Of a stretch of 64,000 nucleotides of DNA, positions 9,253-61,978 are shown piece by piece. Position 1 is the stretch's first letter. Every line of letters starts with the position of its first letter. The position numbers were made by a program, and so were the translations under genes. The stretch comes from a virus, in IMG/VR virus record IMGVR_UViG_3300031715_000001, positions 42,689-106,688 of that record; one strand, given 5' to 3'. A model generated the notes under the pieces. The model had not been told where the DNA came from. It saw nothing but the letters and a program-made list of their open reading frames with translations, and searched no databases.

Positions 9253-9254
9253 GA

Positions 9255-13991: not shown

Positions 13992-14060
13992 GAAGTTGGA
14001 ACCTTAAAGTTGAAATTGGTGGAGAGCGGGGAGCTTTACGCTAGATCTCTAGGGCGCATA

Positions 14061-17738: not shown

Positions 17739-17771
17739 CGGCTCGGCACGAGACCCATAGGAGGGGTCAAC

Positions 17772-18578: not shown

Positions 18579-18620
18579 GCTAAATGCAGGTGTTAGGGAT
18601 GAACCGGGATGATCTTGTAG

Positions 18621-19019: not shown

Positions 19020-19035
19020 GCTTTTTCCTTTCGTG

Positions 19036-19347: not shown

Positions 19348-19367
19348 CACGATAGCCTCAATTCCAT

Positions 19368-22469: not shown

Positions 22470-25400
22470 TTACCGTGAACTGGCCGTGGCGGCGCGCTGT
22501 TGCTGCAGCACATGTTCCGCCGCGAAAGGATTGGTGGAGTTTCCAATTAGTCCGGTGCCGACGATGCTCATATTCAGTACATTGTTGAGCACAGCGGTGG
22601 CGTTTATCTTGACCGGTCCTACTTTGACGCGAGCCGCTTCCTGTTCCCGCTTTTCGTTGCCTTGAAGTCCCGCTATGTCACCAATTGAATTCGCGAACGC
22701 GTTCAGTTGCGCCGCCGCCGCTAGGGCGGTTCTCCAAGTAGTAGGCCAGCCAGCCGGAGTCTTATCCGGTATAGCCGACATCAGTTCAGGCGCTAGTTTC
22801 CCGCTGCGATCGCGGAAGCCGGTGAGGTACGGCTCTTTGGATAATGTGGCGGTCACAGCCGCTCGCGGTAGCGGGCCAAGTACCGGATGGCTGAAGGTGT
22901 TCACAATGTCGCGCATCCCAGCCTCGCGCGCCTGCCCGCCCGTCCCGCGCTCCATGAGCGTCTGGTAAGCCCCCGGGACTCCAAGCGCCATCGCTCCGCG
23001 ACGGATCAATGGATTGAAGGCGTAGACGTTTACGTAACCAACTTCTGGCCCCTTCCCCCAGAGCGTGTTCCCGAGTGTGCTGTGCCGGAACTTGTCGATT
23101 CGCCCCGCACCGCTTCCCACGGGAATGGACAGGAACTTCGAGCGCTTATCCTCCCAGGGATATTTGCCTGTGAGTTCCTTGCTCAACAGGAACCAGACTC
23201 CCAGCGTTCCGAGGATTCCAGCGGTGAGAGCGTGCCAGAGCCGCAACTGCGCTTTGTTCTTCGGAACCCACGGAGCTTTTCCTTCTCCGGGCGTAATCGT
23301 CGGACCGGAACTGAACATGGCGTTCACACCGTTGCGGATCATCGTAGACCCGGCGGTGTAGAAGGGTGAAAACGGGAATGCTTTGACGTGCTTCTCGAGA
23401 TCCGACCAAAGGGCCGGTGTGTAATTTCCAAGTTGATTTACGAACTCGTTCAACTCTTGGGGCGACACATTGGGATTGATTGCCTTGGCGACTCTCCACA
23501 TGATGTAGCGGGCGCGCGCGTCAATCCCTTTGGGACCGTAGAGCATCGGAGACAGCGAGTATCGGACCAGCTTCGCTCCGGTCAGCTTCGCGAGTTCCTT
23601 ACTGTACGTTACCGAAGCATACCGGGTCGGAAGAGCGCCGGCGTCGGCCATTTCCTGAAAGGCTTGGACCGCCTCTTCTTTTGTGGGGTCCGTTGTGGCC
23701 AGCATTCCGAGCGCCTGGAATTTCTTGGTCAAGATATTCGAAGATGCGAGCATGCCTCCGAGCGACGAAGAGAGGAACGGAGTATTCGCAATGAGTGCGC
23801 CCACGAGATTGGCGGAGTGGAAAGTCATGTCCGCCGGGCCCTGCAACGCGAAGGTATTGACCATCTGTAGCGCCCTGTGAATAGCACCGGGCTCTGGTCT
23901 TGAGTCTTTATCGACCACGTCCTTGATTTCGTCGTAGAACCATTTCGGCATGTAAGCTTGAACGGCTTGGGTGTAGAAAGACTTTTCTCCCTGCTTGATG
24001 ACCATTCGCGGAGGCGTGACGGTAACCTTCTTGGTGGGATATTCCTTGCCGCGCCACAGGAATGTATCGGTATCGACCGAACTGGACCTGGGTACTTTCT
24101 TCATGAGGCCCGCGTCATAAGCCGCTTGAATTACGGACGCCCTTCCGCCTTGTGATAAGTCTCTTGCGAGAGCTTGACGAAAGCGCTCGATGTCGACGAC
24201 ATAGCCTTTTTTCGAAAGTCCGGTCGCCATGACGTTCCGCGAGTTACCGGGTTTCTTGAAGCCCAGCTTTTCAAAAAAGGTCGGTTTGCCTTCTTCGGCC
24301 GCGAGTAATGGAAAATAGCGTCCCGCTGGTCCTAGAGCGGTGGTAAAGACGCCTTCGTTCAAGGCGTGATTCTGCGCGATGGGGTGCTCGATGCGCTCGC
24401 CGTAGATCCGGTCGGCTTCTTTCACCTTCGGATTGGTTTTGATCTGATCGCGGATGTGATCGAAGTGATCGGTATCCATGGCGGGACGGACGTTGTTGGC
24501 AGCGGTCTCAAAGAGCGGCCAGAGGTAATTCCGAAGGTCTTCCCAGCGTTTCTGCTCGACCAGGGCACTGGCTATTTGCGCGGGGTTTTCCGGCATTCCG
24601 GCTCTACCCTGTAGATTGTCGAGCATATCCACGAAGTCTTGCGACATCGAGCCTTCTTCGCCGCCGCCCGAGAAATCCTTTTCCATCTGCTCGTCCGTCA
24701 GTTTTTGCGCTTGATTGGCGAAGTCCTGCCAGCGGTCCCGGATTCCCTGGAGGCGTGAGTCGACGTAATAGAGAAACAGCGATTCCACCGGGACTCCGGT
24801 GCCTTCGAGAGCTTTGCGCATCAGCGGTAAAGATGCTCTGATGATGGCCGCCGAGCGAGCTTCAGGCGATGCTCCGCGCAGCATGGCTTCGTGGACGGGA
24901 GGCGATGCACGCTTGGTTTGACCGAGACCGCGGATTAGCGAGGATTCGACCGCGCCTCGGACGCTGTAGTTCCCTCCGCGTGCTCCTTCGTAACCGGTTT
25001 GGATGAGGTCCCCCAAGGCCGGGGCCGATCCACGTTCCCCACGCTTGCCGGGGACTACATCCCGTGTTTTTCGGGGTCGTACTTCTCGGTCGGTTGTGGT
25101 GGGGGATTCGTCAGGACCTGGGCGTGGCTGCTCGTCAGAAAACGAACTCTCTTCAGGGCGGTAGGCGGATATATCTGGTCCAGAGCTTCCTGAAGGCCCT
25201 TCTCCCCGTTCCGTTGCAGGCCCACCAGGCAATTCTTGAGATTCGCTTGGGGCTCGTTCAGGGCCGAAGGCGGAGAAGACTTCGCGGGCGATTCGTCCTG
25301 GAGCTTTAGATCCATATTCTCTCCTCAATGTTCGCACGTATTGCGCCGCAAGGGAACGCGCGTCTGGTACCGACAGGCCCAGTTCCTGGTAGCCCTGTGG

Positions 25401-28400
25401 GCGCATTAAACGCACGGCCACTTCCGTAGCTTGTTCTGGTGAGTCAGGAGCGAGATCGCTGTACGTTCTAGAAAGATGAAGCGCAGCCTTCTCGTAAACC
25501 GGACTGCCGGTAAAACGAGAAAGAGATTCTCCGAAATGCTTGGTCGCCGTTCCCTGAAGGGTCGCCTGGAGCGCGTGGTGTAATTCTTCCGTGAAGGCAG
25601 TATCGCGATGCTGATCCATTGCCGGAGAATCCGAGACAAGGATAAAAGACTTTCCAGCCGGTCCCGCCGAATCGAGCATCTCACGAAGACGGCGCACTGG
25701 CTCGGGCGCGTTGTGAGGGAAAAGGCGTCCGAGGTTACGGGAGAGAACGAACGTATCGCGTGGTGAGATATGAAGCGCGGCGTGAGTAAAAGGGATCGAG
25801 TCCTGTGTTTTATTCCCGGCGCGGGCGACCAATTCCATGGCACTCTGGTTTCCGAGATAGGCGACGGCAAGGTCGTGATATTGCGGCCCGATGGGTATTG
25901 GTTCGATGACGGCTCTGCGGGCGTGGAATCCGTTCGGTGCCTCGCTTATGTATTGGGCGTTTCGCACGTCCTCGGGAAGATGCGGAATGCGGGAACCCTC
26001 TATGCTGACTGGTTCAGAAGCAAGCGCAGTCAGCGACCTCAGTTTCTCTGGTACAGCGTCGTTCCTGATCGGCATGACGAGGCCAACAAGCTTGCTTCCC
26101 TTGTGAGCCTGAAATGCCTCGTTGGTCGCGATCGCGGTCCACTTATCCGGCTTGTGCGCCTTATTGAGGTAATCGAAGTACCCTGAATCCATCACGCCGC
26201 CGTTCGAGAAGACGACGTATTCGTGAGCGCCTTGTTTGTAGAAGCCAACCGGAGTGACTGTTTTGCCGCCCTTGTTTGGGATGACCTTCGAAATATCAGG
26301 CCCTTTTCTCTCTACCTCCGACGGCGTCCAATATTTCGGCGGTGCTCCCTCGACCAGAATGTGTCCGTTCGTGTGCCACACGCCGCCCTTGAATGGAATT
26401 GGCCCGTTGAATCCAAACCTACTATCACCCGGATCTTCAATCTTTCCAGACCCAGGTTTGTACTCTGACATGGGCAGTCCAGCTTCGGCTTTAGCAAAAG
26501 GACTTGGCTCGCCCTTCAAGAACGCTTCCGCAACGGCGCGGGCTTCGGCCTTTGGATACCCAGCGCCAACGATCTCAGTTTCCTGTCTGCCGTATTTATT
26601 CGCTTCGCCGGGAGGTGTGTCGTAGTATTTCCGCTCAACATCCCAACCGTCTGAAATGTTGCGCGACTGCCGGAGGTCTACGCGCTCGCCAGTCGGCTTA
26701 CCTTCGGCGTCCACGCCGTAAGCGGTGAACACTTTTCTTCCGTTTTCCGCTTTCTCTTTTCCGAAAGTAACGGTTGAAGCTTTAACCTCGATGGGCGGAC
26801 CCTTCTTCTTGGCCTCGGGAACCTTTTGTTTCTGTTTTGCCAGTGCATCATTCCGACGGATGTGTCCGTCACGAATGACTTGATCGGCATATTCGTAGTT
26901 GGACGGAGTCTGCAGGTTTGCGCTGGCGCGGTATTCTTCCGCCTCTTCGAGGAGATTCCCGTATTCCTGAGACGCTGGTTTCCCGCGCTTCAGCCGCTCC
27001 TCCAGCGATTCGATCCAGGTACGCACGAGTCCTGGGGAAGCTGCTGTTCCTGGTACCTCATCAGGCTTTGGAGCAGCGGCCATCGCTTGCTGCTCCTTTT
27101 TCTGCACCGACGGAGCGGCACGCTCTGGCATCTTCGGCTGCTCTGGCGCGGGCGCTCCTTCCAATGCGCTTGGGCTCTTGGGGGCGAGATAATCTGTTGG
27201 TTGCGTGACTGATGCCCGCGACACGATCCTTGAGCCTTTGTCTGGTGGCGTAGAATGCGTCCTTGGCTGCTCACCCGCGATCGGACTACCATCCTCGTTG
27301 ACGCGCTGCTCGGTTAGTGTCCAACCGCCGCCCGGTTTCTCGTCGTACGCTAGGACCTTGTCGTACGTGTGCCAGTAGCCGCTAAAGATTACGTTGCCGG
27401 GCGTGTAGAACTCACGACGGCGAGCGATCAACGGAGGAACCGGCTTGGACTTCTTCGCTGTGGCCTTTGTTGGCTTCTCCCTAGTTGTTGTTATAGGCTG
27501 CTGCCGCATCGCGGATATATTCAGCGGCGTCCATGCGGAAGGTACCAGGGTACGACCATTACCATGTATCGCGCCCCATAGCCACGTCTTTCCGTTCGGC
27601 TCGCGGGTCAGGAAGGATTGGCTCTTGGACGGACCTTCGACTTCGAGTCCTAATTCTTTGGCCTTCGCTACGAAAGCGTCATTGGCCGCGTGCCGCAAAT
27701 CTTCGACTTGATCGTTCGTAAGACCGGACGCGCTCTTTACAGTTTTGGCACTTTCACCTTTGGCGCGCTCAGTTTCGGTACCTTCGCCGGCGGGAGCACT
27801 TGTTGGACCCTCGGTACCGCGCTCTGAAATGCTGGATGTAGAGGCTCTGGGACTGGATGGGCCAGGTTGGGCACCTTTGGATCCGCCAGCTTCGGAGGTT
27901 TCACTAGGCGTGGCTTCGGTAGGCGGATGCGCAGGACGTTGGGGGACGACTTCGGTTGGCTTGGATTCATTCTTCTCACCAGTTTTAGACTTTTGTGGTT
28001 CTTGCTGCCGCCCTGGAGTTGCGGCAGCGCTGGATGCTTGTGCTCCGAGTGGGATGTCCGTTCGTTCGCCCGTCTTCGGCATGAAATGAACTCGGTCAAA
28101 TTCGATTTGCTTGCCAGTCAGGCCCGGTACCGCGCGGCCGGCGTACTTCTTTCCTTCGCCCGCTTTCACATAGGCGATGGTCACGTGGGGCTTGTACTCC
28201 GGGAATTCGTTGCCGTTGGGGAGCTTGGAGAGTTTCTTATTCAGTCGCTTCAAACCCTCCGAGTCGACGGCGAGTTTGAGCACATCGTAATCGGGATGCT
28301 GTTTCGACGCAGGGAAGATCGAGATGCGACCAATGTTAGCTTTGATCGGTCCTTGGTCCGCGATGAGCTTTTGCACGTCAGCGGGTTCATTGGTATGCAA

Positions 28401-31400
28401 TCCGTAGAAGACGGTGATGTGAGGTTCGGTTTCACGTCCATCCTCGGCGAGATCGGAATCGGGAATCTTCGCGGCGGCTTTGCGGAAGGCGTCGGCGAAT
28501 TGCTGTGGCAGATTGACCTGAGTAGAAGAATAATCGTGTGCCTTCTTTTCCGTTGGAGCGTTTTGCTGCCCAACTGAGGCTTGGGCAGCGGCGCGCGCTT
28601 CCGTCGCTTTATCTGCCCCCTCCTGTCCGAAGGCATCAACAATCTCGTTCAAGGTTGCCGCCGCCATTTGGCGCGCATTCGCTAGCGAGGCTTCGAGTTC
28701 CTTCTTCCGCTTCGGCGTGAGCTTCGGATTTCGGAGGGCTTCCTCTAAATTGCGCGCTGCGTTTGCGTGCCCGACGTATTGGTCGCGGGCTCCCTCGAAT
28801 AGCGCCTCGGGCGGATTCTCTTCGCCTTCATAGCGGGAGCCTTCCCGGACTTTCAGCGGTTCGGCAGCCGGCGGTTTCGCCGCAGCAGTGGGCTCTGGCT
28901 GGAGTTTCTTAATCCAGTCGATCATCGCCTGTTGACGTTTGGCAGTTTTCTCGGGAACATCCGACGGAAGTTTTGCCGTCAGCGCATTCTGCGGGCGTGT
29001 TGCACTTTTCAGAAATTCCTGAATCGCTTCCTCGCGTGTTGGATAGAACTTATCGAATCCCGAAGTTCCGAGGTGTCCGCCAGCTTGTCCCTGTAAATTG
29101 AAATTGCCCGCGACTTGCCATCCCTTTCCAGGATGATTGCCAATATGTACATCAATCTTGTCGTTGCCCTTCGAGCGATATTGAAGTTTCTCGACTTGCG
29201 GCTCGGGGCCTGCCGCGGGAAGGGAAGAAGGAGTTTCAGAGGTAGCTGCGGGCTTCAGTAATTCGCGAGGCTTCGAACCATCCGCTGGTCCGATGATTCC
29301 TTCCTTCTCCATCCGATCAAGCATGCGGGCGGCTTGACCGTAGCCCATTCGCAACTTTCGTTGCAGGATAGACGGTGAGGCTTTTCCAGCCTCGCGGACG
29401 ACTTGAAGCGCTTCGGGATAACGAGCCTCTTCCGCTTCTGGAAGAGTGGGTGCCGGGAGAGAAACCTCTTTCGGAAGAGGTGTCGCTTCCGGCTGCGCCT
29501 TCACACTCTTCGGTGGATTAAAACTAGTTGCTGCATGTTCAGTTAAGTACACTCCTGGTTCTGCATCATCAGATACTTTCTGTAATCCTTTATCTGTTGA
29601 TTTGAATAATTGTCCTGTTGCGGACCAATAAGGCTTCTTAGCCATCTCAGCATGGTCAAATTGGAAATCAGAGGGTGATCCGGCTTTCTTCCAGGCATCG
29701 ACGATCTGCAGGCCTCCGCCGGTCAAGACGACTAACGCACGGCCTTGGGGCGGAAGATTCTTTTCGACCTGGTCGAAATTCTGTAGCGTCGGCAATTTGA
29801 ATTGGTTGAAGCTTTGCCCCGGTTCACCGGAGATAGGACTTACGCCTTCCGGTTTCGAATCCGGATTGAGCATGAGCGAGGAGACTTTGTCTGCGACCTG
29901 GTCAACTGGTTTACCTTCATCCTCACCGCGGGCCCAGCCGTCGAAGGCCGGAACTTGGGTGGGCGAGTCCGAGAAGTTCTTGGCCGTATCGACTAATCGA
30001 TCGTCGGTACCGGTAATGACCTGATCGAAGGGCTTCGATAATTTGGAGGCTAATTCTGAGGCTTGTTGTTCTCCTTGAGAAGACAGGGGAATATCGGCTG
30101 ATCCGGTGACTCTACGAACTGATCCTGCAGTATCCGCGCCTTGAGCGGGGGGAGGAGGTTCAGGTTGAGCACTGCCAGGTCCGCCTCCGGTCTCCACAGG
30201 AAGTCCACGTAGACCTGCGGGGCGTTGATCCTCAACTGGCGGTTGGACACTACCTGGCTGACTTTCAGGAACAGCTCCGGACTGTTGCAGTTCCTGATCT
30301 CGACCGTTACTAGGTGATACATTGGTTGCCTTTGCGGCCAGTTTGGTGAACAAAGAGAGCGGCAACCGCTGGCCGGGGACCACGCTTCCATCAGGTAGTT
30401 TCTGGTCGAATTGAACGCCCGTGTTATCGGATTTGGTGACAGTGTAGGTCCCTGAAGGGAGTTCGAAGCTGGAGCCAGGACTCAGCGCGGACGGTGCTGG
30501 AGACGTTGCCGCGGCGGGAGTTTTGAGAAAGTCTTCGGGCGCGACGGAGAGATCTGGAGCAGCTCCGCCGGCGGGTTGAACGGGCGGGACGCCAGGCGGG
30601 GGAATTTCGCCTGCAGGCGGAGTAGGCGGCGCTTCAGGTGCGGGGCCCGCGATTTGCTTCGGTGCCATGGCAGCGCGTTCTTGGGCCTGACGCTCCGCGT
30701 ATTCGCGGTTGACCTTGTTCTGGAGGAAGTCCTTTAGCGCGGCGCGAAACTGCGCGTTTCGGATCATGCCCGGTATGCCGGTGATAACCCCGCCTCCGGC
30801 CGCTCCGACGAGACCGGCTAAAGTTGAGGCTACTTCGTCGTATTCCTCGGGTACGTCCAGTTTCTTGAGCAGTGCATGGGTGGCTTCGGTCGAAGCCGTC
30901 CCCAGACCGAGGGCGATAGCAGCCTCTACGGGCGCGATAACTCCTTCACCGACCATCGCGGGTGTGCCGGCTTTCATCGCTCCACCCAAGACGTTCCCCA
31001 CCCCTCCTGCAAATTGCCGGGTGAGTTGTTCCTGCTCCGATGGGCTGACGGGCGGCGGTTGCGCTGGCACGATGGAGCTTGGGCCAGCGACGATAGGCGC
31101 TCTCCTTGAAAGCGGCTCTGCCATCTGTTCGGCGCCGCGAGCGATTTGCTCTACTCCCTGTACTGGGGCGTCTAAAACTCCGAGCGGGCCGGTGCCGGTG
31201 TCATCGCCGTAGTAGCGTGCTCCGGTTCGCGGGTTGATGAACAAAGGCGCATTGTTCGCTATTGCTCGTGCCTTGGCGTCCGCGGGCGTCTGCAGCTCGC
31301 CAGGGGCAGGCGGAGTGGGAAGTGCTGGTACTGACCCCGGCTCAGGTTGTGCGGTGGTGAGCCCCGGTGGAACCGTGAGTGGAGTAGTGGGTGGTATGGC

Positions 31401-31925
31401 CGTACTGGAGACCGTTCCACGTGCCACGTCGGGAGCAGTGATCGGAGTTTCCCCGGCCACTTCCCAGCCAGTGTTAGAGACCGGTGATTCTGACGCGACG
31501 TCCCAGACAGCAGAACTGCTTTCTTTGTTCGCTTGGAAAGCTGCTAATTTCTCACGATCGACGGAGGAGAGCTTGGCAGTTCTGTTCGCGCCCAGCGACT
31601 TCTCCGCGTCCCGAATGTACTGCTCGGTATCGTTTTCAGACGGCGGCGCGTAGGAGTTGATATAGTCGCCGAGCGTGTCCCCTTTGTCCGCCCTGGACTG
31701 GATGTGCTGCCGGAGCGCCTCGTAGCCCGACTCAGGGGAATCGAATTTCGCAAAGCTTCCATTCTGGGTTGCACCGGGTTGTTTAGCATACTCCAAATTT
31801 CCTGGGTTGTTGTTCTGGTAGGCCAACTGGACGCGGTTCGGCTGTCCGGGCGCGACGGGAGGAATCGTCACGCTCGCGCTAGGAGCAAGGTCCTGTTCTT
31901 CTTCTACTTCCCAAGCTACGGGCAT
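22470..31925 (-). CDS. giant polyvalent DNA-ejection (internal virion) protein, P22 gp16 position
   Basis: 3151 aa, third gene of the ejection cluster; NNPGNL lysozyme-like N-domain, histidine-phosphatase-like domain, FtsK-gamma domain, 2H phosphoesterase (HIT/HVT), EELHH metallopeptidase-like motif. Confidence 0.8.
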   Translation of the reverse strand: MPVAWEVEEEQDLAPSASVTIPPVAPGQPNRVQLAYQNNNPGNLEYAKQPGATQNGSFAKFDSPESGYEALRQHIQSRADKGDTLGDYINSYAPPSENDTEQYIRDAEKSLGANRTAKLSSVDREKLAAFQANKESSSAVWDVASESPVSNTGWEVAGETPITAPDVARGTVSSTAIPPTTPLTVPPGLTTAQPEPGSVPALPTPPAPGELQTPADAKARAIANNAPLFINPRTGARYYGDDTGTGPLGVLDAPVQGVEQIARGAEQMAEPLSRRAPIVAGPSSIVPAQPPPVSPSEQEQLTRQFAGGVGNVLGGAMKAGTPAMVGEGVIAPVEAAIALGLGTASTEATHALLKKLDVPEEYDEVASTLAGLVGAAGGGVITGIPGMIRNAQFRAALKDFLQNKVNREYAERQAQERAAMAPKQIAGPAPEAPPTPPAGEIPPPGVPPVQPAGGAAPDLSVAPEDFLKTPAAATSPAPSALSPGSSFELPSGTYTVTKSDNTGVQFDQKLPDGSVVPGQRLPLSLFTKLAAKATNVSPSNGRDQELQQSGAVPESQPGSVQPPVEDQRPAGLRGLPVETGGGPGSAQPEPPPPAQGADTAGSVRRVTGSADIPLSSQGEQQASELASKLSKPFDQVITGTDDRLVDTAKNFSDSPTQVPAFDGWARGEDEGKPVDQVADKVSSLMLNPDSKPEGVSPISGEPGQSFNQFKLPTLQNFDQVEKNLPPQGRALVVLTGGGLQIVDAWKKAGSPSDFQFDHAEMAKKPYWSATGQLFKSTDKGLQKVSDDAEPGVYLTEHAATSFNPPKSVKAQPEATPLPKEVSLPAPTLPEAEEARYPEALQVVREAGKASPSILQRKLRMGYGQAARMLDRMEKEGIIGPADGSKPRELLKPAATSETPSSLPAAGPEPQVEKLQYRSKGNDKIDVHIGNHPGKGWQVAGNFNLQGQAGGHLGTSGFDKFYPTREEAIQEFLKSATRPQNALTAKLPSDVPEKTAKRQQAMIDWIKKLQPEPTAAAKPPAAEPLKVREGSRYEGEENPPEALFEGARDQYVGHANAARNLEEALRNPKLTPKRKKELEASLANARQMAAATLNEIVDAFGQEGADKATEARAAAQASVGQQNAPTEKKAHDYSSTQVNLPQQFADAFRKAAAKIPDSDLAEDGRETEPHITVFYGLHTNEPADVQKLIADQGPIKANIGRISIFPASKQHPDYDVLKLAVDSEGLKRLNKKLSKLPNGNEFPEYKPHVTIAYVKAGEGKKYAGRAVPGLTGKQIEFDRVHFMPKTGERTDIPLGAQASSAAATPGRQQEPQKSKTGEKNESKPTEVVPQRPAHPPTEATPSETSEAGGSKGAQPGPSSPRASTSSISERGTEGPTSAPAGEGTETERAKGESAKTVKSASGLTNDQVEDLRHAANDAFVAKAKELGLEVEGPSKSQSFLTREPNGKTWLWGAIHGNGRTLVPSAWTPLNISAMRQQPITTTREKPTKATAKKSKPVPPLIARRREFYTPGNVIFSGYWHTYDKVLAYDEKPGGGWTLTEQRVNEDGSPIAGEQPRTHSTPPDKGSRIVSRASVTQPTDYLAPKSPSALEGAPAPEQPKMPERAAPSVQKKEQQAMAAAPKPDEVPGTAASPGLVRTWIESLEERLKRGKPASQEYGNLLEEAEEYRASANLQTPSNYEYADQVIRDGHIRRNDALAKQKQKVPEAKKKGPPIEVKASTVTFGKEKAENGRKVFTAYGVDAEGKPTGERVDLRQSRNISDGWDVERKYYDTPPGEANKYGRQETEIVGAGYPKAEARAVAEAFLKGEPSPFAKAEAGLPMSEYKPGSGKIEDPGDSRFGFNGPIPFKGGVWHTNGHILVEGAPPKYWTPSEVERKGPDISKVIPNKGGKTVTPVGFYKQGAHEYVVFSNGGVMDSGYFDYLNKAHKPDKWTAIATNEAFQAHKGSKLVGLVMPIRNDAVPEKLRSLTALASEPVSIEGSRIPHLPEDVRNAQYISEAPNGFHARRAVIEPIPIGPQYHDLAVAYLGNQSAMELVARAGNKTQDSIPFTHAALHISPRDTFVLSRNLGRLFPHNAPEPVRRLREMLDSAGPAGKSFILVSDSPAMDQHRDTAFTEELHHALQATLQGTATKHFGESLSRFTGSPVYEKAALHLSRTYSDLAPDSPEQATEVAVRLMRPQGYQELGLSVPDARSLAAQYVRTLRREYGSKAPGRIAREVFSAFGPERAPSESQELPGGPATERGEGPSGSSGPDISAYRPEESSFSDEQPRPGPDESPTTTDREVRPRKTRDVVPGKRGERGSAPALGDLIQTGYEGARGGNYSVRGAVESSLIRGLGQTKRASPPVHEAMLRGASPEARSAAIIRASLPLMRKALEGTGVPVESLFLYYVDSRLQGIRDRWQDFANQAQKLTDEQMEKDFSGGGEEGSMSQDFVDMLDNLQGRAGMPENPAQIASALVEQKRWEDLRNYLWPLFETAANNVRPAMDTDHFDHIRDQIKTNPKVKEADRIYGERIEHPIAQNHALNEGVFTTALGPAGRYFPLLAAEEGKPTFFEKLGFKKPGNSRNVMATGLSKKGYVVDIERFRQALARDLSQGGRASVIQAAYDAGLMKKVPRSSSVDTDTFLWRGKEYPTKKVTVTPPRMVIKQGEKSFYTQAVQAYMPKWFYDEIKDVVDKDSRPEPGAIHRALQMVNTFALQGPADMTFHSANLVGALIANTPFLSSSLGGMLASSNILTKKFQALGMLATTDPTKEEAVQAFQEMADAGALPTRYASVTYSKELAKLTGAKLVRYSLSPMLYGPKGIDARARYIMWRVAKAINPNVSPQELNEFVNQLGNYTPALWSDLEKHVKAFPFSPFYTAGSTMIRNGVNAMFSSGPTITPGEGKAPWVPKNKAQLRLWHALTAGILGTLGVWFLLSKELTGKYPWEDKRSKFLSIPVGSGAGRIDKFRHSTLGNTLWGKGPEVGYVNVYAFNPLIRRGAMALGVPGAYQTLMERGTGGQAREAGMRDIVNTFSHPVLGPLPRAAVTATLSKEPYLTGFRDRSGKLAPELMSAIPDKTPAGWPTTWRTALAAAAQLNAFANSIGDIAGLQGNEKREQEAARVKVGPVKINATAVLNNVLNMSIVGTGLIGNSTNPFAAEHVLQQQRAATASSR

Positions 31926-31933
31926 TTAGTTTT

Positions 31934-33463
31934 TTACTGACCGGGTTGGTCGAGTCTGACCTGCTTGCCACCCTGAAGCGTCCAGGTCTGGCCATTCTTG
32001 AACTTCGTCGCCACTCCCTCTTTGAGGACAGAAGCGGGCGGCGCTTGACTTGTGGCCGCCGGTGTTCCGGCCGGAGCCTGGCTGGGCGACTGGATAGCCG
32101 GGGTATATTTTCCCCACCCGTGGCGTTTCAGAATCTCATCTTGCTGGTTGTTCAGAATCTGCGCTCGCTGGTCGATGCCGTTCATGAGCGTGGTGGCATC
32201 GTCGATCGGCATGTCGCGATTGGTCTTGGGATCTTTAATCGTGTCCTGACCGTCGGCGGACGCCTTCTGAATTCGGTTCTTGTACTGCGCTTTCAGTTGC
32301 CAGAGTTGCGCTTCCTGGCCCTGCAGCGTCTTCTGTAGTTGCGCCTGACGCTCGTCGTCGCGCGATTGGATCATCTGCTGATTGGCTGACGCGCCCGAAG
32401 TTCCTTTCGCCTTCTGTTGCAGCGCCAATGCGTTGGCCGCCGACTGGCGCACTTCCGGAGTTTGCGTCGGATCGCTCGCAAGCACGGCCAGGGCTCCAGG
32501 AGTGGTCCCAGCGCGTTGGGTCATGGCGTCGGCGCGCTGCTTTTGTACGTCCCGTGAGGTCCGTTGATTCGAGTTGAGCGGTACTTCCTGAATCTTCGCG
32601 GCCGTTGCCTGGCCCTGCGGCGTTGACGGGTCGAAGGTCTGGAAATTCTGGAAGAACGGTTTTACCGCTGGATCCAGATTTTCGAGCCATTCGGAATGCT
32701 GTTCCTGGTTGGTGACTCCCAGGTGCTCGGCGGCGGCGTTCTCTTTCTTCTGCTGTAGCGCGTAAGCATCGTTCCCGGCGGCATACTTCTTCTCGATACC
32801 GAGCCGCTCTTTGGCCTGCGCTTGCGCATCCACGTCCTTGTCCCAAGCGGCGAGCGCCCCGACATGCGCTAGGTGAGACCGGAGCGTAGTGTCGGACAAA
32901 TCTCCCGGTTGTGCGGGATAGTCCGGGTCGTTCTCGCCGATGAACTTTTGATCAAGTAGCGTTTGACGCAATCCGGGATAGGCGCCTGCACGCTGCTCGG
33001 CCGGAAGCGAGAGTAGGCTCTGTCCCGCGTTCGCCAGGGCCGTATTCCTAAGCGCGTTGTTTTCCTGTTGGATCTTGGGGAGTTCCAGTTGCTGCTTGAT
33101 GTAGGCCTGTTGGTAATCCTGAATCGGCTTCCAATTCCTGGGCTTGATCTGGGGTTGTACGTCTGCCTGGAAACCGTTCCAATCAGTCGTGCCGTCGGGT
33201 TTCTGGAAACGCGCCATCGAGTCCTGGATGGTCTGCTGATCGGCCTGGTCCTCTTGCGCCTTTTGTAGGTTCAGTTGGAATTCCTGACCTTGCGTCCCAC
33301 TGTTTTGCACCTGGTTGGCGAGAGCCTGGGCGCGCAAGGGACCTTCGGCTACCTGTTGACGCAATAATGCCGCACGATTAGCCGTCTCCGCTATAATCGC
33401 CGGATCGGTGATGTCGGGAGGCTTTATTCCTGTGGCAATTATGGATGGATCAAGAAGTGGCAT
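31934..33463 (-). CDS. DNA ejection/transfer protein (P22 gp20 position)
   Basis: Gln/Ala-rich helical 509-aa protein between the gp7-like and giant ejection genes; C-terminal FKNGQTWTL motif. Confidence 0.6.
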   Translation of the reverse strand: MPLLDPSIIATGIKPPDITDPAIIAETANRAALLRQQVAEGPLRAQALANQVQNSGTQGQEFQLNLQKAQEDQADQQTIQDSMARFQKPDGTTDWNGFQADVQPQIKPRNWKPIQDYQQAYIKQQLELPKIQQENNALRNTALANAGQSLLSLPAEQRAGAYPGLRQTLLDQKFIGENDPDYPAQPGDLSDTTLRSHLAHVGALAAWDKDVDAQAQAKERLGIEKKYAAGNDAYALQQKKENAAAEHLGVTNQEQHSEWLENLDPAVKPFFQNFQTFDPSTPQGQATAAKIQEVPLNSNQRTSRDVQKQRADAMTQRAGTTPGALAVLASDPTQTPEVRQSAANALALQQKAKGTSGASANQQMIQSRDDERQAQLQKTLQGQEAQLWQLKAQYKNRIQKASADGQDTIKDPKTNRDMPIDDATTLMNGIDQRAQILNNQQDEILKRHGWGKYTPAIQSPSQAPAGTPAATSQAPPASVLKEGVATKFKNGQTWTLQGGKQVRLDQPGQ

Positions 33464-35030: not shown

Positions 35031-35498
35031 TTAATTAATCTCCATCGGTCGGGACAGCCCAACAATAATCAAATCTTGAAGTCGGCCATGTTTCATAAAC
35101 GAGCGTGGGTGTACGCCGACGATTTCCATGCCCGAAGCCTTGGCAAACGCTAAAGCAGCGCGGTTACTCGCCACGATCGTTCCAATCAGTCTTTGGCATT
35201 TGGTTTCGCCCCAGATCCATTCCCTGAATTCCCTTGCGGCCCTACGCGCTCTTCGTCCCCAGGCTGAAGGGAGAAAGGCTTCGTGCAGTTCCCACATCAC
35301 GTGAGAATGTTTGGCGACCATGAATAATCCGATCAGCTCGGGACCGTCTTTGACCAGCACGTACTTCAGTAATTCGTGCTCGGGCGGTTCCCATTCGGAA
35401 GCCGGCGGCGCGAAATCATCGTGCATGTGTTCGTAGAGTTTGGGGTGTGTCAGTATGCTCTTGAGGATCTTTGGATCGGCGCAAACCTCGAAAGTCAT
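35031..35498 (-). CDS. GNAT-fold protein (P22 gp14/DUF2824-like)
   Basis: WELHEAFLPSAWGR...NRAALAFAKASGM GNAT motifs; conserved position just upstream of the gp7-like gene. Confidence 0.7.
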   Translation of the reverse strand: MTFEVCADPKILKSILTHPKLYEHMHDDFAPPASEWEPPEHELLKYVLVKDGPELIGLFMVAKHSHVMWELHEAFLPSAWGRRARRAAREFREWIWGETKCQRLIGTIVASNRAALAFAKASGMEIVGVHPRSFMKHGRLQDLIIVGLSRPMEIN

Positions 35499-38147: not shown

Positions 38148-39902
38148 TTATGAAGGCCCCAATTCAATCAAGGCATTATAAATAGCTTTCAGTTGTCGAG
38201 CCGTACTCTTGATCTTAAAAGTCTTTGAAATCCAGAAAGCACCGAGTGAGTACCACACAGGCTTAGGATCGAAGACTTGAGGATTAGTCTGCGAGTTCTG
38301 CGTCATATCGGTGATCTCGTCCGGCGTCAGGAAAGTTCCCTCATACTCTCCAGATCGTCCAAGCGATGCAGCTCCGGCATCTACCCAGGTGCGCGCACCG
38401 TCCGATGACGTGGCCAGGTTGACGGTGGGGATCAGCGGCTTTCCATCCAGCCCCAAGTTAGCGGGGTCGATTGTTCCTAACTCGCAATCGAGGGCAAAAC
38501 ATTTGATGTTCTGCATTTCGAGGTTGGAATTGATGTGCGGGGAAATCCGCATCACCGGGATATCGACGCCGTCGTCCTGGTCGAAGTCGGGCGAAACCTG
38601 CCAGATCTTGCCCGAAGCGAAGCCCGCGACCAAGTCCATCCTGGTCCCGCTCGGCCAGGTGACGTGTACCCGAAAAGTTCCCGGGTCGGCCCCATATACT
38701 TCGTCCTCGGGCGTCTCCGGACCCATTTCCGACCACACACCGCCCGCCGTCTGGTCCCATTCCCAGGTTCGATTCGCGGTTGGAAAGTCAATGCGGTAAA
38801 TCGAGTGCCCGCCCTCGAGGTACGTCGAGCCAATGGCATCGTAGACGAGAGGATAGCTTCGCATGGCGTTTTCGATGCCGTGATCGGAAATACGCACAGG
38901 CGCTCCACCAGCGGAGTGAACGATCTGATCCTCGCCCCGCAGCGTGCTAAGCAGGCTGCAGATCGATCCATCGGCGAGCTTCGCCACCGACCACGGCGCG
39001 GATGTCCCGGCGTTGATATTGCGCCCGCTCACTCTGGTGAAAGGGAAATCGGCGTTTCCGGAGTCGCCCCAGACTTCGGTTTGGCTCGTGTCTCCGATCA
39101 AAGCCAATTGTCCGTTGACTTCTTGGATGGCCCCAATATTGTCGATCGAGCCCGATTTGTCCGCGAAATCGAGCTCGTCCCAGGTGCTTCCGTCCCCGAG
39201 CGCTGAGAGACGAAACTGCTTGGTGTTGGGTTGAGAGACGATGAAGTAGTCGTCGATAAATTCCGGCATGACGCCGGTCAAATACTCGGTGCCGGCCTGA
39301 TAAGCCACGTCCTCGATCATTCCGGCGTCTTTGTCCAACACTAGGTCCGTGGCGTCTGTAACGGCGATGACGTTGTAGAGAGTCGTGCCGATCATGAACA
39401 GATCGCCTGGCAGGACATCGCCGCCCGCGCCCTGGAAAAGCGCGCCCGATACCCAACTGACCGCGTTGCCGTTTACGTTTACTGTTCCGGTCGCATAGCT
39501 GATGATCGGACGGAAGAGTGAGACTCCGTTGTAGAGGTACACATTGCCGGCGCTGCACACCAAAAGCTGTAAGCCGTTGGCCCGCATGGTGGCCGGATTT
39601 CCACCTACCGCGATCGGTCCGGCCGCGTGGCTGGAAGTGTCTTCGAATATCTCGTAGAGCATCCCCCCACAAACGACGAAGACCCTGGTCTTGTTGGCCC
39701 ACATCCCTTGTACGCCGGCGCCGGGTGTTTTAAGAGTGGTGAAGAGCTTTTTGCCGGAACGCGGGAATAAGGTGAAGGGACTTTTCGAAGCAGGATCCAT
39801 ATTCTGCTCGATCCGCATGTTTACGGTACGCGTGGCCGAGGCTCCTCTAGCCCGTGAGTTGTAGGAGCCAGCGCAGAAATTAGCTATGGGCGTCAGTGGC
39901 AT
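38148..39902 (-). CDS. tail hub / packaged-DNA stabilization protein (P22 gp10-like)
   Basis: 584-aa beta-propeller-like protein; DGSTWDELDFA, EVWGDSG.ADFPF, RISDHGIE and SSDGARTW motifs; gene order. Confidence 0.8.
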   Translation of the reverse strand: MPLTPIANFCAGSYNSRARGASATRTVNMRIEQNMDPASKSPFTLFPRSGKKLFTTLKTPGAGVQGMWANKTRVFVVCGGMLYEIFEDTSSHAAGPIAVGGNPATMRANGLQLLVCSAGNVYLYNGVSLFRPIISYATGTVNVNGNAVSWVSGALFQGAGGDVLPGDLFMIGTTLYNVIAVTDATDLVLDKDAGMIEDVAYQAGTEYLTGVMPEFIDDYFIVSQPNTKQFRLSALGDGSTWDELDFADKSGSIDNIGAIQEVNGQLALIGDTSQTEVWGDSGNADFPFTRVSGRNINAGTSAPWSVAKLADGSICSLLSTLRGEDQIVHSAGGAPVRISDHGIENAMRSYPLVYDAIGSTYLEGGHSIYRIDFPTANRTWEWDQTAGGVWSEMGPETPEDEVYGADPGTFRVHVTWPSGTRMDLVAGFASGKIWQVSPDFDQDDGVDIPVMRISPHINSNLEMQNIKCFALDCELGTIDPANLGLDGKPLIPTVNLATSSDGARTWVDAGAASLGRSGEYEGTFLTPDEITDMTQNSQTNPQVFDPKPVWYSLGAFWISKTFKIKSTARQLKAIYNALIELGPS

Positions 39903-40343: not shown

Positions 40344-40528
40344 TGATGTGCCCTCGCTGCCGTAGGGAGCTTTCCCTTGGCGAAGTCCACATCGCCTGCT
40401 CTCCAGCGATTACCATGGCGTGCCCGATATGCCGCGCCGAAAATGACCGTACACGCTCAAAGTGCCATCACTGCGAATCCGAGCTGCATCCCAAGCGGCA
40501 GGTTCAGCATGTGACCACTGATCACTGA
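40340..40528 (+). CDS. small zinc-ribbon protein
   Basis: CPRC, CPIC and CHHC motifs; coupled to the upstream stop. Confidence 0.5.
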   Translation: MMMCPRCRRELSLGEVHIACSPAITMACPICRAENDRTRSKCHHCESELHPKRQVQHVTTDH

Positions 40529-47845: not shown

Positions 47846-49105
47846 TTACAGCGAGCAGATCAGACAAGCCTTTCTCGATTGGCCAACCAGCGTGCCCAAA
47901 AGCATGTCTAGCCGTGTGACCACCTCGCCCGACATCACATCGGAAGCGCGCCAGACGCGCATCCCGATCTTCATGATCTTCGAGCGCGTGCGCCCGGAGA
48001 GTTTGTCGACGTCGGCCGGAAGCACGAGGTTCGGTGAGGCGTAAACCAGCGCCGATTTGTGCATGGCGATTCCCACCGTGAAAGTGATGCTGGAGATGGC
48101 GTTCATCGTGGCGCCGGTGGGTTGGCCCCAGATGAATACGGGAGCGTTGGCGGCCGGAAGCGCGGAAACGTTGGCGTAAGCGGTGCCGAACTCGATTGCC
48201 TCGGTGAGGGTAACGGTCACGGTCCCGGTGTTCGAGGAATTACAGGCGGCCGCAACGGTGAAAGCCTGCAGATCGCCTGGATAGACGACACCCAAGACCG
48301 GGTGCACCATGGCGCAGCCGGTAAACTGCAGCTTGTCGCCTTGCAGAAGGACGCCGGTGATGCTGTTCGCAAAACCGGAGAGGTTGATCGAAGTGCCGGA
48401 TTGATTGGCTCCAGCAACAAGCGGAACCGCGCCGGTGAAATTACCGGTGGTTTGCTGATAGAGCGCCTGTTCCATGTACCAGGTCGCTCCGCCGAATTCT
48501 CCCATCTTGCCGGCCATCGAACCAGTCCGATAGCGTTCGCTGATTTCGGCGGTGGGGTTGAAGAACGTGCGTCCGGTCGCGGTCGCCTTCTGATCCATCG
48601 CGGCGTCGACCAGGATGTGTCTTACTCCGCCCATGCCGGCGGGCGTTCCACCTTGACTCAGTAGCCGGTGGGCGTCTTGGTAGACATCGAGCGAGGTCGG
48701 TACGACGCCCGGAGTACCTACGAAATTCGAAACGCCGAGCGCCATGGTCTGAGTGGCGGATTTCGCGGCGGCGGCCCCGATGGCGTCCACGTGGGGCTCG
48801 AGGACTTGTTCTTTGAAGTCGTTCAATTCCATCGACAGCATGCGGTCGGTCAAAAGTGAGTCCGAACCGAAGGCGGGAGGAATGACCATTGTGACCAGGC
48901 GCTCGTCGATGGCCTGGGGTTGTGCGCGCTCTCCGCGGCGCGATTGCATGTAAACGGGCAACCGGATGGCGATCGTATCGCCTTTTACCGGAGAATTCGC
49001 CCATTGGGGATCGTAGCGGCCGTCTGCCAATTGCAGGATGACGGAATTCTGGCTATACCGCTCCATCGCTTCGTCGAGGATGATGTCGCTAGTTAATAGA
49101 GGCAA
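47846..49105 (-). CDS. major capsid protein (P22 coat gp5 family)
   Basis: KGDTIAIRLP, FFNPTAEISERY, LLQGDKLQF, TRLDMLLG motifs; follows the scaffold gene. Confidence 0.85.
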   Translation of the reverse strand: MPLLTSDIILDEAMERYSQNSVILQLADGRYDPQWANSPVKGDTIAIRLPVYMQSRRGERAQPQAIDERLVTMVIPPAFGSDSLLTDRMLSMELNDFKEQVLEPHVDAIGAAAAKSATQTMALGVSNFVGTPGVVPTSLDVYQDAHRLLSQGGTPAGMGGVRHILVDAAMDQKATATGRTFFNPTAEISERYRTGSMAGKMGEFGGATWYMEQALYQQTTGNFTGAVPLVAGANQSGTSINLSGFANSITGVLLQGDKLQFTGCAMVHPVLGVVYPGDLQAFTVAAACNSSNTGTVTVTLTEAIEFGTAYANVSALPAANAPVFIWGQPTGATMNAISSITFTVGIAMHKSALVYASPNLVLPADVDKLSGRTRSKIMKIGMRVWRASDVMSGEVVTRLDMLLGTLVGQSRKACLICSL

Positions 49106-54891: not shown

Positions 54892-55174
54892 GAATACTCT
54901 CTTTCGGAACTTCAATCTTCTTTTTTGGTGATGGGAACATCTGCATCCGCATTGCAGTATTGGACACGGCGTGCTGGACCACTTCTTCAAGCGATCGCGG
55001 GCCTTTGGGCTTCTCACTGTGGATCTTGTCCCTCTCGAGCAGCCGGCATTTGGAGGTACAGCGCGGGCAGAAGGGCGTCGGTGATATGACTTCGGCGGCC
55101 TTGCCACCTGGGCGCCAGCTCCTGAAGTCTTTCGAACATCGGTCGCAGATATAGAACGAACGGGTTTCGCTCAT
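54812..55174 (-). CDS. zinc-finger hypothetical protein
   Basis: CDRC...CPRC motif; coupled to the portal stop; 3' end runs through a hairpin element. Confidence 0.5.
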   Translation of the reverse strand: MSETRSFYICDRCSKDFRSWRPGGKAAEVISPTPFCPRCTSKCRLLERDKIHSEKPKGPRSLEEVVQHAVSNTAMRMQMFPSPKKKIEVPKESIPSCALLEPAHGQEVPYPDSSVIGNSE

Positions 55175-61202: not shown

Positions 61203-61772
61203 CTACTTCTTTCGCTCAGGCTCGGCAGGCTGCACTTCCGCCGCGGGTAATTGTGCCGCTTCCTTCTGCATCTGTATGCTCTCGGCAGCCTGTATTCCTT
61301 TGCGCAGCCATTCGAGGAGGTCCCGTACTTGCCCCTCGGTCAGATTGTCGAGATCTCCCTCGAGCGGCGCTACTCTCTGGCGGTTGAAATGGTCTGGGTC
61401 CCCGGCTTCGAGGAACTTGATCATCAGGTGATCGGAGTAGATGCGCTCGTAGACCAACTGGCCCTGGTGTCTGACCGGTTTGCCCTTGTAGAGCAGCAGC
61501 TTGAGCACGCCGTCGTGTGCCCTCCGGACAGCTTCGTCCTTCATGCTCTGCAGCCACCGCTTCTCAGCCGCCTTGAACCGTACCGGATACGTCGGGTCTT
61601 CGTCGAGCCACCGGTAATGCTCCGAGCGCGCTACCTTGGCCCAGCGGGAGGCGTCGAGCACCCGCCCGCACTCCGCGACACATGCCAGAAAGCGTTCCTG
61701 GGACGCCAGGTTGAACCTCGCGCGCGCGTAAGCGTGTCCGATGGTGTCTGATGGGGGGCCCGAAACGGCCAT
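61203..61772 (-). CDS. terS: terminase small subunit
   Basis: HTH-like segment QERFLACVAECG.V..A....V.RS.HY.W; EAVRRAHDGV...YSDHLMIKFLEA.DP motif; position upstream of terL. Confidence 0.65.
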   Translation of the reverse strand: MAVSGPPSDTIGHAYARARFNLASQERFLACVAECGRVLDASRWAKVARSEHYRWLDEDPTYPVRFKAAEKRWLQSMKDEAVRRAHDGVLKLLLYKGKPVRHQGQLVYERIYSDHLMIKFLEAGDPDHFNRQRVAPLEGDLDNLTEGQVRDLLEWLRKGIQAAESIQMQKEAAQLPAAEVQPAEPERKK

Positions 61773-61780
61773 AACGGGTC

Positions 61781-61978
61781 CTAGTTCGGTACGCACTGCC
61801 AGGTGTATTTGCAGTTGCGGCCATTCTCGTCGCAAGTGCAGACTGGCGCCATTCGAGCGCATCCGGGCGGGGGTGGGGGCGGTGGAGGTGGAGCGCCACA
61901 GCCCTGTCCGTTCGCAGTACTGGTTTGCATCGTCATCAGCAGGATTGCAGTTAGGACTAATAACAGTGTGGACTTCAT
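61781..61978 (-). CDS. small secreted Cys-rich poly-Pro peptide
   Basis: Signal peptide followed by six Cys and nine consecutive Pro. Confidence 0.55.
   Translation of the reverse strand: MKSTLLLVLTAILLMTMQTSTANGQGCGAPPPPPPPPPGCARMAPVCTCDENGRNCKYTWQCVPN

Follow-up and report, generated by a model that had tools for sequence, protein, structure and literature searches.

Why would a phage keep the winged helix of the bacterial translocase FtsK inside a giant late protein and dispense with the motor? The question is raised by a 64,000-nt stretch of virus DNA (the window), part of a genome of 106,688 bp, in which the first-pass annotation had placed a stand-alone FtsK gamma domain at 29255-29432, within a virion ejection protein. 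From the known dealings of FtsK gamma with KOPS motifs and with XerD it had been proposed that the domain orients the incoming DNA, tethers it to the chromosome or activates XerCD of the host. Here we describe the domain, the protein and operon that contain it, and the readings that its residues and relatives allow.

A canonical FtsK gamma domain without a motor

Reverse-complement translation reproduced the peptide that had been quoted for this locus, and the coordinates proved right within one base, but the feature lies on the minus strand (Table 1). The FtsK_gamma profile PF09397 matched the segment over profile positions 3-61 of 63 with 75.4 bits (E 2.9e-21), where the gathering cut-off is 30.6 bits, and the domain scored 82.5 bits in a six-frame search of the whole genome. 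When the PDB sequences were searched by phmmer, the matches were FtsK gamma entries only (2J5O, 2VE8/2VE9, 2IUT, 2J5P, 5DCF and 2IUS, with E-values from 1e-11 to 2e-7). The AF2 model of the segment showed three core helices with a pLDDT of ~83 and a less confident wing (~62). In the comparison of this model with the PDB by Foldseek, the best 13 matches were all FtsK gamma (probability 1.00, target-normalised TM 0.61-0.76), including 2VE8, 2J5P, 2J5O and the KOPS-bound gamma 2VE9, and the next fold class had an E-value ~40-fold or more worse. These results identify the segment as a canonical FtsK_gamma winged helix, in a match far beyond chance, and confirm the close resemblance that had been noticed at first sight.

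The remark that no motor domain lies nearby was also borne out, and on a larger scale, as PF01580 (FtsK_SpoIIIE) had no match at E ≤ 0.01 across the whole 106,688-bp genome. The alpha/beta RecA-like motor (PF17854 plus PF01580) was absent from the giant protein in the Pfam scan, so that its layout is not that of an FtsK/SpoIIIE translocase; real FtsKs included in the same search (P0029 and P0141) did show the motor. The gamma domain is present in a single copy, internal to the giant protein and held between flexible linkers, rich in Pro, Ala, Ser and Thr on both sides.

Table 1. Late genes and giant-protein segments discussed in the text, in window coordinates.
Feature	Coordinates	Strand	Residues	Basis
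Small terminase subunit, start of late operon	61203..61862	minus		phrog_4044, E 5e-21
Portal protein	55171..57462	minus		phrog_156, E 3e-79
Major head protein	47846..49105	minus		phrog_283, E 2e-36
Podovirus tail-hub / 'packaged DNA stabilization' protein (P22 gp10 class)	38148..39902	minus		phrog_578, E 6e-60
509-aa ORF directly upstream of giant gene	31934..33463	minus		ORF list; context
Giant multidomain ORF (P0002), probably virion-packaged and ejected	22470..31925	minus	3,151 aa	single open frame; homologues
N-terminal header domain	31536..31877	minus	17-130	of the kind heading ejected, tape-measure and internal virion proteins
Gly/Ala-rich hydrophobic segment, N-terminal carrier region	30903..30959	minus	323-341	Kyte-Doolittle, 19-aa window, max 1.59
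His_Phos_1 (histidine phosphatase superfamily)	29706..30116	minus	604-740	PF00300, 43 bits, E 5e-11
FtsK_gamma winged helix-turn-helix	29256..29432	minus	832-890	Pfam, PDB sequence matches, fold match
2H phosphoesterase, weakly Acb1-like	28131..28439	minus	1163-1265	PF13563, 32 bits; phrog_755
Conserved ~855-aa C-terminal carrier module	22473..25040	minus	2296-3151	blastp map, alignment, AF2 model
Predicted transmembrane-like helix within C-terminal module	23184..23240	minus	2896-2914	Kyte-Doolittle max 1.59 over 19 aa

The giant gene in the late operon

The late operon runs on one strand in the order TerS, portal, major head protein, gp10-like hub, giant gene and tail genes. The tblastn matches of the hub gene were annotated as head closure Hc3, packaged DNA stabilization protein or tail tubular protein B. 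The ORF just upstream of the giant gene had no match in PHROG or Pfam, nor by tblastn in 50,697 phage records; its place in the gene order corresponds to that of JC1 gp68 (510 aa), the gene ahead of the giant gp69 in that phage. Downstream of the giant gene, PHROG and Pfam gave essentially nothing for the ORFs at 2870-21884, whose designation as tail genes follows from their position. The phage also encodes a 371-aa tyrosine integrase (PF00589, 52-54 bits), located at 31335-32450 in the coordinates of the whole record. We conclude that this is a temperate P22/Bcep22-like podovirus and that the giant ORF occupies the ejection-protein slot of its late operon. Judging from gene order and relatives, the gamma domain very probably does sit inside a virion ejection protein, as had been proposed. 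The host of the phage is probably an acidobacterium.

A common carrier module with shuffled cargo

Pfam families detected in the giant protein with E < 1e-6 were FtsK_gamma, His_Phos_1 and 2H phosphoesterase, to which PHROG added the N-terminal header; at least four further conserved blocks have no assignment, and neither do long stretches of the protein. The header domain matched phrog_873, phrog_2276 (tape measure) and phrog_7182 (tail injection transglycosylase), with E-values from 1e-19 to 1e-10, and in tblastn it matched structural proteins of epsilon15/phiV10-like phages and an 'internal protein B'. Two relatives, P0003 and P0009, have an SLT domain at the position corresponding to the header, and by blastp the giant protein shares aa 366-564, around the hydrophobic segment of the N-terminal carrier region, with P0003 and P0007. 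The His_Phos_1 match begins at profile position 15, and inspection of the place where the N-terminal RHG motif is expected revealed RRVTGS, in which that motif is not recognisable. Both H-x-T motifs of the 2H domain are present (HITV and HVTI), and the Acb1 profile PF23474 reached 20 bits on this domain, under its cut-off.

Eighteen homologues of 1,866-5,418 aa carry the C-terminal module together with cargo that includes SNF2 or Sno helicases, methylase, SLT, ddrB-ParB, LPD38, 2H and His_Phos domains in differing order and content; PF18857 (LPD38), for instance, is found in P0018. The blastp block map showed that aa ~2296-3149 are the only part common to the whole family. In L003 the module stands by itself as a 981-aa ORF, and elsewhere it bears more than 3,300 aa of cargo. 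Because the homologues share only the C-terminal module and carry shuffled cargo, we assign the giant protein to the polyvalent proteins. Its closest relative, P0003, whose C-terminal module is 78% identical, is devoid of gamma, indicating that gamma is dispensable for the carrier function.

The AF2 model of the C-terminal module (pLDDT 77) gave 69 matches at E ≤ 0.001 in BFVD, to segments of giant phage proteins, many of them annotated LPD, LPD38 or LT_GEWL; the matches to LPD/LPD38-annotated segments had a probability of 1.0 and TM values of 0.3-0.45. Among PDB folds, Foldseek found nothing for the module at E ≤ 0.001 and the best VIA-align wide Z was 4.8, for a helical sub-part, a result that is a missing match and not proof of a new fold. 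The comparison thus leaves the module unconnected to T7 gp16 or any other ejection protein of solved structure.

Comparison with known polyvalent and virion proteins

The FtsK wHTH was listed by Iyer, Burroughs, Anand, de Souza and Aravind (2017, J Bacteriol 199:e00245-17; PMC5512222) as a dsDNA-binding domain that polyvalent proteins carry infrequently, with a predicted role on dsDNA, one example being Cupriavidus WP_029307715. The giant protein is a phage-type polyvalent protein, and a motor-less FtsK wHTH in such proteins was already described in 2017. Like the phage-type proteins of that study, it joins unrelated enzymatic and nucleic-acid-binding domains in one giant polypeptide encoded among the virion genes of a portal/terminase phage, and it includes a 2H domain, called phage-type-specific there. 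Unlike them, it showed no Pfam LPD match at E ≤ 0.1 and, again by Pfam, no MPTase, ArdC-N or methylase-helicase dyad, and its C-terminal module can be recognised solely in uncultured phages and through structure prediction, with no tblastn match among the 50,697 deposited phage records. Since neither a match in deposited phages nor a Pfam LPD was found, the link to the studied polyvalent proteins rests on architecture and predicted structure.

A second likeness is to the 'DarB-like' podovirus proteins Bcep22 gp75 and JC1 gp69 (archetype P1 DarB; PMC9144972). There, too, a giant gene ends the morphogenesis block, after a ~510-aa virion protein and a head closure/hub gene, and the comparable giant protein JC1 gp69 was found by mass spectrometry in CsCl-purified virions (PMC9144972). 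The differences are that neither our C-terminal module nor the 509-aa ORF has a sequence match to deposited phages, and that helicase and methylase are missing from the giant protein described here, for which we imply no role in antirestriction.

Gamma domains occur elsewhere among phages, with relatives of gamma encoded in 116 deposited phage records. In the Bacillus phages Sam46 and Sam112 the small terminase bears an N-terminal FtsK_gamma, and separate small FtsK_gamma phage genes exist whose role was stated to be unknown (PMC8190038). These phages share with ours the re-use of a motor-less gamma as a presumed DNA-recognition module, but in them, as in the phage gamma genes, the domain belongs to a packaging enzyme or to replication/recombination blocks and not to a virion cargo protein. 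At least 57 short sequence matches look like genuine gamma-only proteins. Taking all the short top matches as stand-alone gamma proteins was rejected, as alignment showed that in some cases a short contig carries just the C-terminal part of an FtsK gene.

The gamma domain as a probable tether to double-stranded DNA

The domain recurs in P0004, P0006, P0009, P0103, P0149, P0169 and P0129, and in giant proteins it often stands beside a 2H phosphoesterase and a histidine-phosphatase-like domain. Six of the giant-protein gamma domains formed an exclusive clade in the tree (support 0.93), with cores 61-70% identical to one another across proteins that differ in their other cargo. This exclusive clade indicates a maintained module and not a fresh capture from a host. 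In the tree, the phage domain has as its nearest non-giant neighbours FtsK gamma domains of the Solibacteraceae/Bryobacteraceae type, and it shares 56-62% identity with the FtsK gamma encoded in genomes of these two families.

We consider it fairly probable that gamma acts here as a motor-less dsDNA-binding module, one 'bead' in an ejected phage-type polyvalent protein, which tethers the cargo to DNA. The giant protein would be packaged in the virion through the N-terminal header and the C-terminal carrier module, and would be ejected into the cell along with the genome. Gamma would then hold it on duplex DNA, in all likelihood that of the entering phage and perhaps also that of the host nucleoid, and such a tether may keep the enzyme cargo (2H phosphoesterase, histidine-phosphatase-like domain and several unassigned modules) where it is needed as infection begins, in its first minutes. 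A point against this reading is that binding of DNA by a lone gamma domain is expected to be weak, so that we have to assume several copies of the giant protein per virion for useful affinity. Three gamma domains sit on each KOPS in the case of FtsK (PMC5052618), and the giant protein has one copy.

DNA-reading residues and KOPS-like sequences

Compared with FtsK/SpoIIIE gamma (PF09397; 2J5P, 2J5O, 2VE8, 2VE9 and 5DCF), the phage domain has the same fold, retains almost all the near-invariant positions of the family and keeps the equivalents of R1289, R1292, G1294, Y1295, R1300 and E1306. It differs in being without a translocase motor and in having N1296, R1297 and E1303 replaced by G, Q and D, respectively. 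A triple alanine mutant of E. coli R1300, E1303 and E1306 is KOPS-blind (PMC2680272, through which the list of KOPS-contact residues was taken indirectly). In the alignment to PDB gamma, the phage domain has R, D and E at these three positions, so its DNA-reading surface is plausibly intact, as far as can be judged from sequence. Other positions have moved. Position 1297, an Arg in 205 out of 285 related gamma domains, is never Arg in the giant-protein clade, and position 1300 may be R, K, Q, D or A within the giant-protein gammas, with Arg in only two of the six clade members. Without R1297 and with a variable 1300, these domains could read DNA in a relaxed or altered way, or could have taken up a protein partner instead.

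The R, D and E at the KOPS-contact positions, and the proximity to Solibacteraceae/Bryobacteraceae FtsK gamma in identity and in the tree, would also suit a domain that recognises the polar G-rich octamers of the host chromosome and, as a form of host takeover, holds the cargo at the nucleoid or competes with the loading of host FtsK. In the whole phage genome, the KOPS sequence GGGNAGGG was found 7 times on the plus and 3 times on the minus strand, where an order-3 Markov model predicts 5.0 and 5.7 copies. For the full set of KOPS/SRS sequences scanned genome-wide (GGGNAGGG, GGGCAGGG, GAGAAGGG and GAGAAG), counts were at expectation and showed no polarity, and the best of 488 tests for de novo strand-skewed octamers (p 5e-4) was not significant after correction. 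The proposal that the domain orients the incoming DNA by way of KOPS is not upheld by these counts, and, as the phage genome has no KOPS enrichment, any specific target would be on the host. There is, however, one gamma copy here, against three per KOPS in FtsK (PMC5052618), and the handful of molecules injected would scarcely rival the FtsK of the cell. The range of residues found at position 1300 argues, moreover, against a single conserved target motif. We regard the reading of host KOPS as a doubtful alternative to the tether.

More improbable, in our view, is that gamma does not bind DNA in this protein, and serves as a protein-protein adaptor, for example in capsid core assembly, or persists as a decaying passenger without present function. 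Winged helices are often re-used for protein contacts, and the absence of R1297 from all giant-protein gammas, the variability of position 1300 and the lack of gamma in the closest relative, P0003, could all be understood in this way. Such readings sit poorly, however, with the 75 bits scored against the Pfam profile and with the retention of almost all near-invariant positions. Furthermore, a supported clade with 61-70% core identity amid differing cargo points to purifying selection.

XerD contacts and dif-like sites

Residues of gamma that contact XerD are Q1288, R1289, R1292, I1293, G1294 and N1296 (Table 1 of PMC5052618). The phage domain has Q, R, R, M, G and G at these positions, that is, four identical residues, one conservative change and the replacement of N1296 by G. 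Position 1296 is also G in the FtsK gamma of two probable host-lineage Acidobacteriota, whose loop reads RRLRLGYGR, compared with RKLRMGYGQ in the phage. The critical R1289 is kept in 8 of 8 giant-protein gamma domains while the recognition-helix positions vary, and isolated gamma, or even the 9-residue peptide RQFRIGYNR, activates E. coli XerD (PMC5052618). A gamma with a kept XerD loop and a drifting DNA-reading helix might be conceived as a recombinase switch delivered at DNA entry, independent of FtsK and of cell division, which would turn on host XerD or another tyrosine recombinase, such as the phage integrase, for integration, recombination or the creation of host chromosome dimers. The XerD contacts are, however, a subset of the DNA contacts of gamma (PMC5052618) and are near-universal among the gamma domains of the family, so their retention is nonspecific.

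Two dif sites of the probable host lineage were recovered from Solibacteraceae and Bryobacteraceae genomes (L009 and L010). The best phage matches to these two Acidobacteriota dif sites had at least 10 mismatches out of 28, the level of shuffled genomes (9-11), and with the dif sites of E. coli, B. subtilis and actinobacteria nothing was found within 9 mismatches in the phage genome, where the core pattern was also absent. The genome-wide search for dif-like sites and skewed KOPS-like octamers therefore returned neither. The idea of XerCD-mediated integration is not supported, given this lack of a dif-like site in the phage genome and the phage's own tyrosine integrase, and that of recombination at 'hairpin cassettes' gained no support. 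[quoted passage not shown]

Phage-encoded activation of Xer has a reported precedent in XafT of TLC-phi, which we take to belong to a different domain family and not to the gamma domains. This protein of a satellite phage is a known XerD activator supplied by a mobile element (PMC6744903; PMC9226527), as the first-pass annotation had proposed for gamma. TLC-phi integrates at dif and relies on XerCD, whereas the phage described here lacks a dif-like site and encodes an integrase itself. With a context that is that of an anti-defence or takeover cargo protein and not of a recombination module, activation of XerD by the phage gamma is unlikely, although its largely retained contact residues would be compatible with contact to XerD, and a delivered switch for XerD or any other tyrosine recombinase seems to us highly improbable.

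What the finding means

The tether to dsDNA stays our preferred reading of the domain, and the understanding of phage entry or of Xer recombination is unchanged by this result. What the locus adds to the giant injected polyvalent proteins is a clearly resolved case, taken from a phage lineage that is uncultured and probably acidobacterial, and with it the observation that gamma in these giant proteins is an inherited component with a clade of its own and not an accidental capture from a host.

A motor-less FtsK gamma domain in a giant phage protein

The first-pass annotation had claimed, from the sequence alone, a motor-less FtsK gamma winged helix within a virion ejection protein. Its peptide was reproduced by reverse-complement translation and lies in a single open frame of 3,151 codons, the giant protein P0002 (see table). 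The Pfam family FtsK_gamma (PF09397) matched at 75.4 bits (E 2.9e-21; cut-off 30.6), and PDB sequence searches matched only FtsK gamma entries (2J5O, 2VE8/2VE9, 2IUT, 2J5P, 5DCF and 2IUS). An AlphaFold model of the segment, with a pLDDT of ~83 for the three core helices, gave FtsK gamma domains as all of its best 13 Foldseek matches in the PDB. The absence of a motor was borne out too, the FtsK_SpoIIIE family finding no match across the whole genome. A minus-strand FtsK gamma domain without motor is therefore confirmed as a real feature.

Features of the giant protein and of the late genes around it (window positions)
Feature	Position	Strand	Residues or length	Remark
Small terminase	61203-61862	-		
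Portal	55171-57462	-		
Major head protein	47846-49105	-		
Paralogous ORF	45198-45959	-	253 aa	phrog_12985
Paralogous ORF	40522-41262	-	246 aa	phrog_12985
Hub or 'packaged-DNA stabilization' protein	38148-39902	-		P22 gp10 class
GNAT acetyltransferase	35031-35498	-	155 aa	PF13302, also DUF2824
Giant protein	22470-31925	-	3,151 aa	single open frame
His_Phos_1	29706-30116	-	aa 604-740	match begins at profile position 15
FtsK gamma	29255-29432	-	aa 832-890	PF09397
2H phosphoesterase	28131-28439	-	aa 1163-1265	both H-x-T motifs intact (HITV, HVTI)
C-terminal carrier module	22473-25040	-	~855 aa	one TM-like helix

Genomic position and architecture of the giant protein

The viral contig, an IMG/VR record of 106,688 bp, is judged to be 97% complete, and the window makes up its final 64 kb. 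The minus-strand late genes run from small terminase through portal, major head protein and gp10-class hub to several small ORFs plus a 509-aa ORF, the giant gene and finally large ORFs, which had no family matches in PHROG and Pfam scans and are assumed to be tail genes because of where they lie. The head-to-tail block also carries the two paralogous ORFs, and the GNAT gene is embedded in the virion genes shortly before the ejection-protein slot is reached. The giant gene stands where P22-like and Bcep22-like podoviruses have their ejection proteins; JC1, a Bcep22-like phage, has a virion protein of 510 aa immediately before the 4,515-aa 'DarB-like' gp69, which was found in purified virions (PMC9144972). 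The first 130 residues of the giant protein matched tape-measure and 'tail injection transglycosylase' PHROG families as well as structural proteins of epsilon15/phiV10-like phages, and in two relatives (P0003 and P0009) an SLT lytic transglycosylase holds this N-terminal header position. We infer that the giant protein is packaged in the virion, ejected and bound to DNA.

A search of 5.8 billion proteins yielded 18 relatives of 1,866-5,418 aa. In a block map, only aa ~2296-3149 were common to all, while the header, His_Phos, gamma, 2H and four unassigned blocks varied in presence and order; other cargo in the relatives comprised SNF2 and Strawberry-notch helicases, methylase, SLT, ddrB-ParB and LPD38. 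The His_Phos_1 block is shuffled among P0006, P0007, P0010, P0012 and P0017; in the giant protein its match lacks the RHG motif, RRVTGS standing where RHG is expected, and the domain may be catalytically altered. The 2H domain, the most widely shared cargo block (10 of the 18 relatives), has a weak, sub-threshold likeness to anti-CBASS Acb1 and may degrade a signal of the cyclic-nucleotide or 2'-5' type. In P0006, a ~352-aa intein-like insert (aa 2820-3171; Cys first, HN last, Ser next) splits a helicase motif between FVDEAD and SFKNLQF; the motif is unbroken in P0004 (aa 2237).

The C-terminal module anchors proteins of 981 to >5,400 aa: it stands alone as a 981-aa ORF (L003:9578-12523), and ends a 1,714-aa ORF and another of >4,154 aa. 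Its model was confident (pLDDT 77) and matched no solved structure in PDB fold searches, nor did tblastn find its sequence in 50,697 deposited phage records. The model did find 69 counterparts in BFVD at E <= 0.001, all of them segments of giant phage proteins and many labelled 'large polyvalent protein associated domain', LPD38 or LT_GEWL. The shuffled multidomain pattern is that of the polyvalent proteins named by Iyer et al. 2017 (PMC5512222), predicted to be packaged and then injected with DNA; 2H and LPD38 are confined to their phage-type members, and an 'FtsK wHTH domain' is already on record as one of their infrequent dsDNA-binding domains (PMC5512222). The best-supported reading, which we consider probable, is that gamma is a dsDNA-binding tether within such an injected protein.

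Residues, relatives and possible targets of the gamma domain

Residues were numbered by alignment to E. coli FtsK, counting backwards from its C-terminus, consistently with control residues R1280, R1297 and G1318 (PMC5052618). The phage gamma is identical to FtsK at Q1288, R1289, R1292, G1294, Y1295, R1300 and E1306, and is changed at I1293 (M), N1296 (G), R1297 (Q) and E1303 (D). The KOPS-blind FtsK mutant is R1300A/E1303A/E1306A (PMC2680272), and XerD is contacted through Q1288, R1289, R1292, I1293, G1294 and N1296, R1289 being critical (PMC5052618). Both surfaces are thus largely kept; since they overlap and are conserved across almost all gamma domains, sequence alone cannot tell DNA reading from XerD contact. 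That the domain reads host KOPS is unlikely, if the foremost alternative. The phage genome carries KOPS-type octamers at the expected frequency and without polarity, and none of its octamers was significantly strand-skewed.

Seven further giant proteins carry gamma (P0004, P0006, P0009, P0103, P0149, P0169 and P0129), usually after the N-terminal carrier region and close to the 2H domain. Six of the giant-protein gammas grouped as an exclusive clade (support 0.93) in a tree built from ~285 related domains; within this clade, position 1297 is never Arg and residues at 1300 vary. Gamma is absent from P0003, the closest whole-protein relative, in the block map. That gamma is a non-DNA adaptor or a vestige is somewhat less probable than the host-KOPS reading.

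In a library of 1.84 billion proteins, the gamma segment's 150 closest relatives (P0020-P0168, all outside the window) were mostly short, some being FtsK C-terminal fragments from short contigs. At least 57, of ~150-370 aa and with a Met start, consist of two or three tandem gammas and little else, and look like real proteins. Because three gamma domains bind one KOPS in FtsK (PMC5052618), such tandem proteins may suffice on their own for KOPS-type binding.

Contigs assigned to the bins of Solibacteraceae and Bryobacteraceae (Acidobacteriota) genomes carry relatives of the C-terminal module; these genomes have one gamma match each, in an 822- or 853-aa frame taken to be FtsK; the phage gamma is 56-62% identical to these. 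Each genome holds exactly one canonical dif-like site (L009:1494-1521, minus strand; L010:1494-1521, plus strand) of pattern A(C/T)TTCCGATAAC(G/A)GATATTATGT(C/A)AACT, and the reversed pattern gave zero sites in both. The dif-like sites sought in the phage failed to appear: its genome came no closer than 10 mismatches to either 28-mer (shuffled genomes, 9-11), and nothing lay within 9 mismatches of E. coli, B. subtilis or actinobacterial dif. The phage has its own 371-aa tyrosine integrase outside the window (genome 31335-32450; L002:1393-2508, minus strand), which points to this podovirus-like phage of ~107 kb being temperate. Activation of Xer or an integrase by gamma is improbable, as the dif site and recombinase dependence that define Xer-exploiting elements are lacking; it would, if true, be the interesting outcome.

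The gamma domain is genuine and sits in an ordinary setting, of a kind already known. As a tether, it would hold the protein's enzymes to the incoming genome or the nucleoid.
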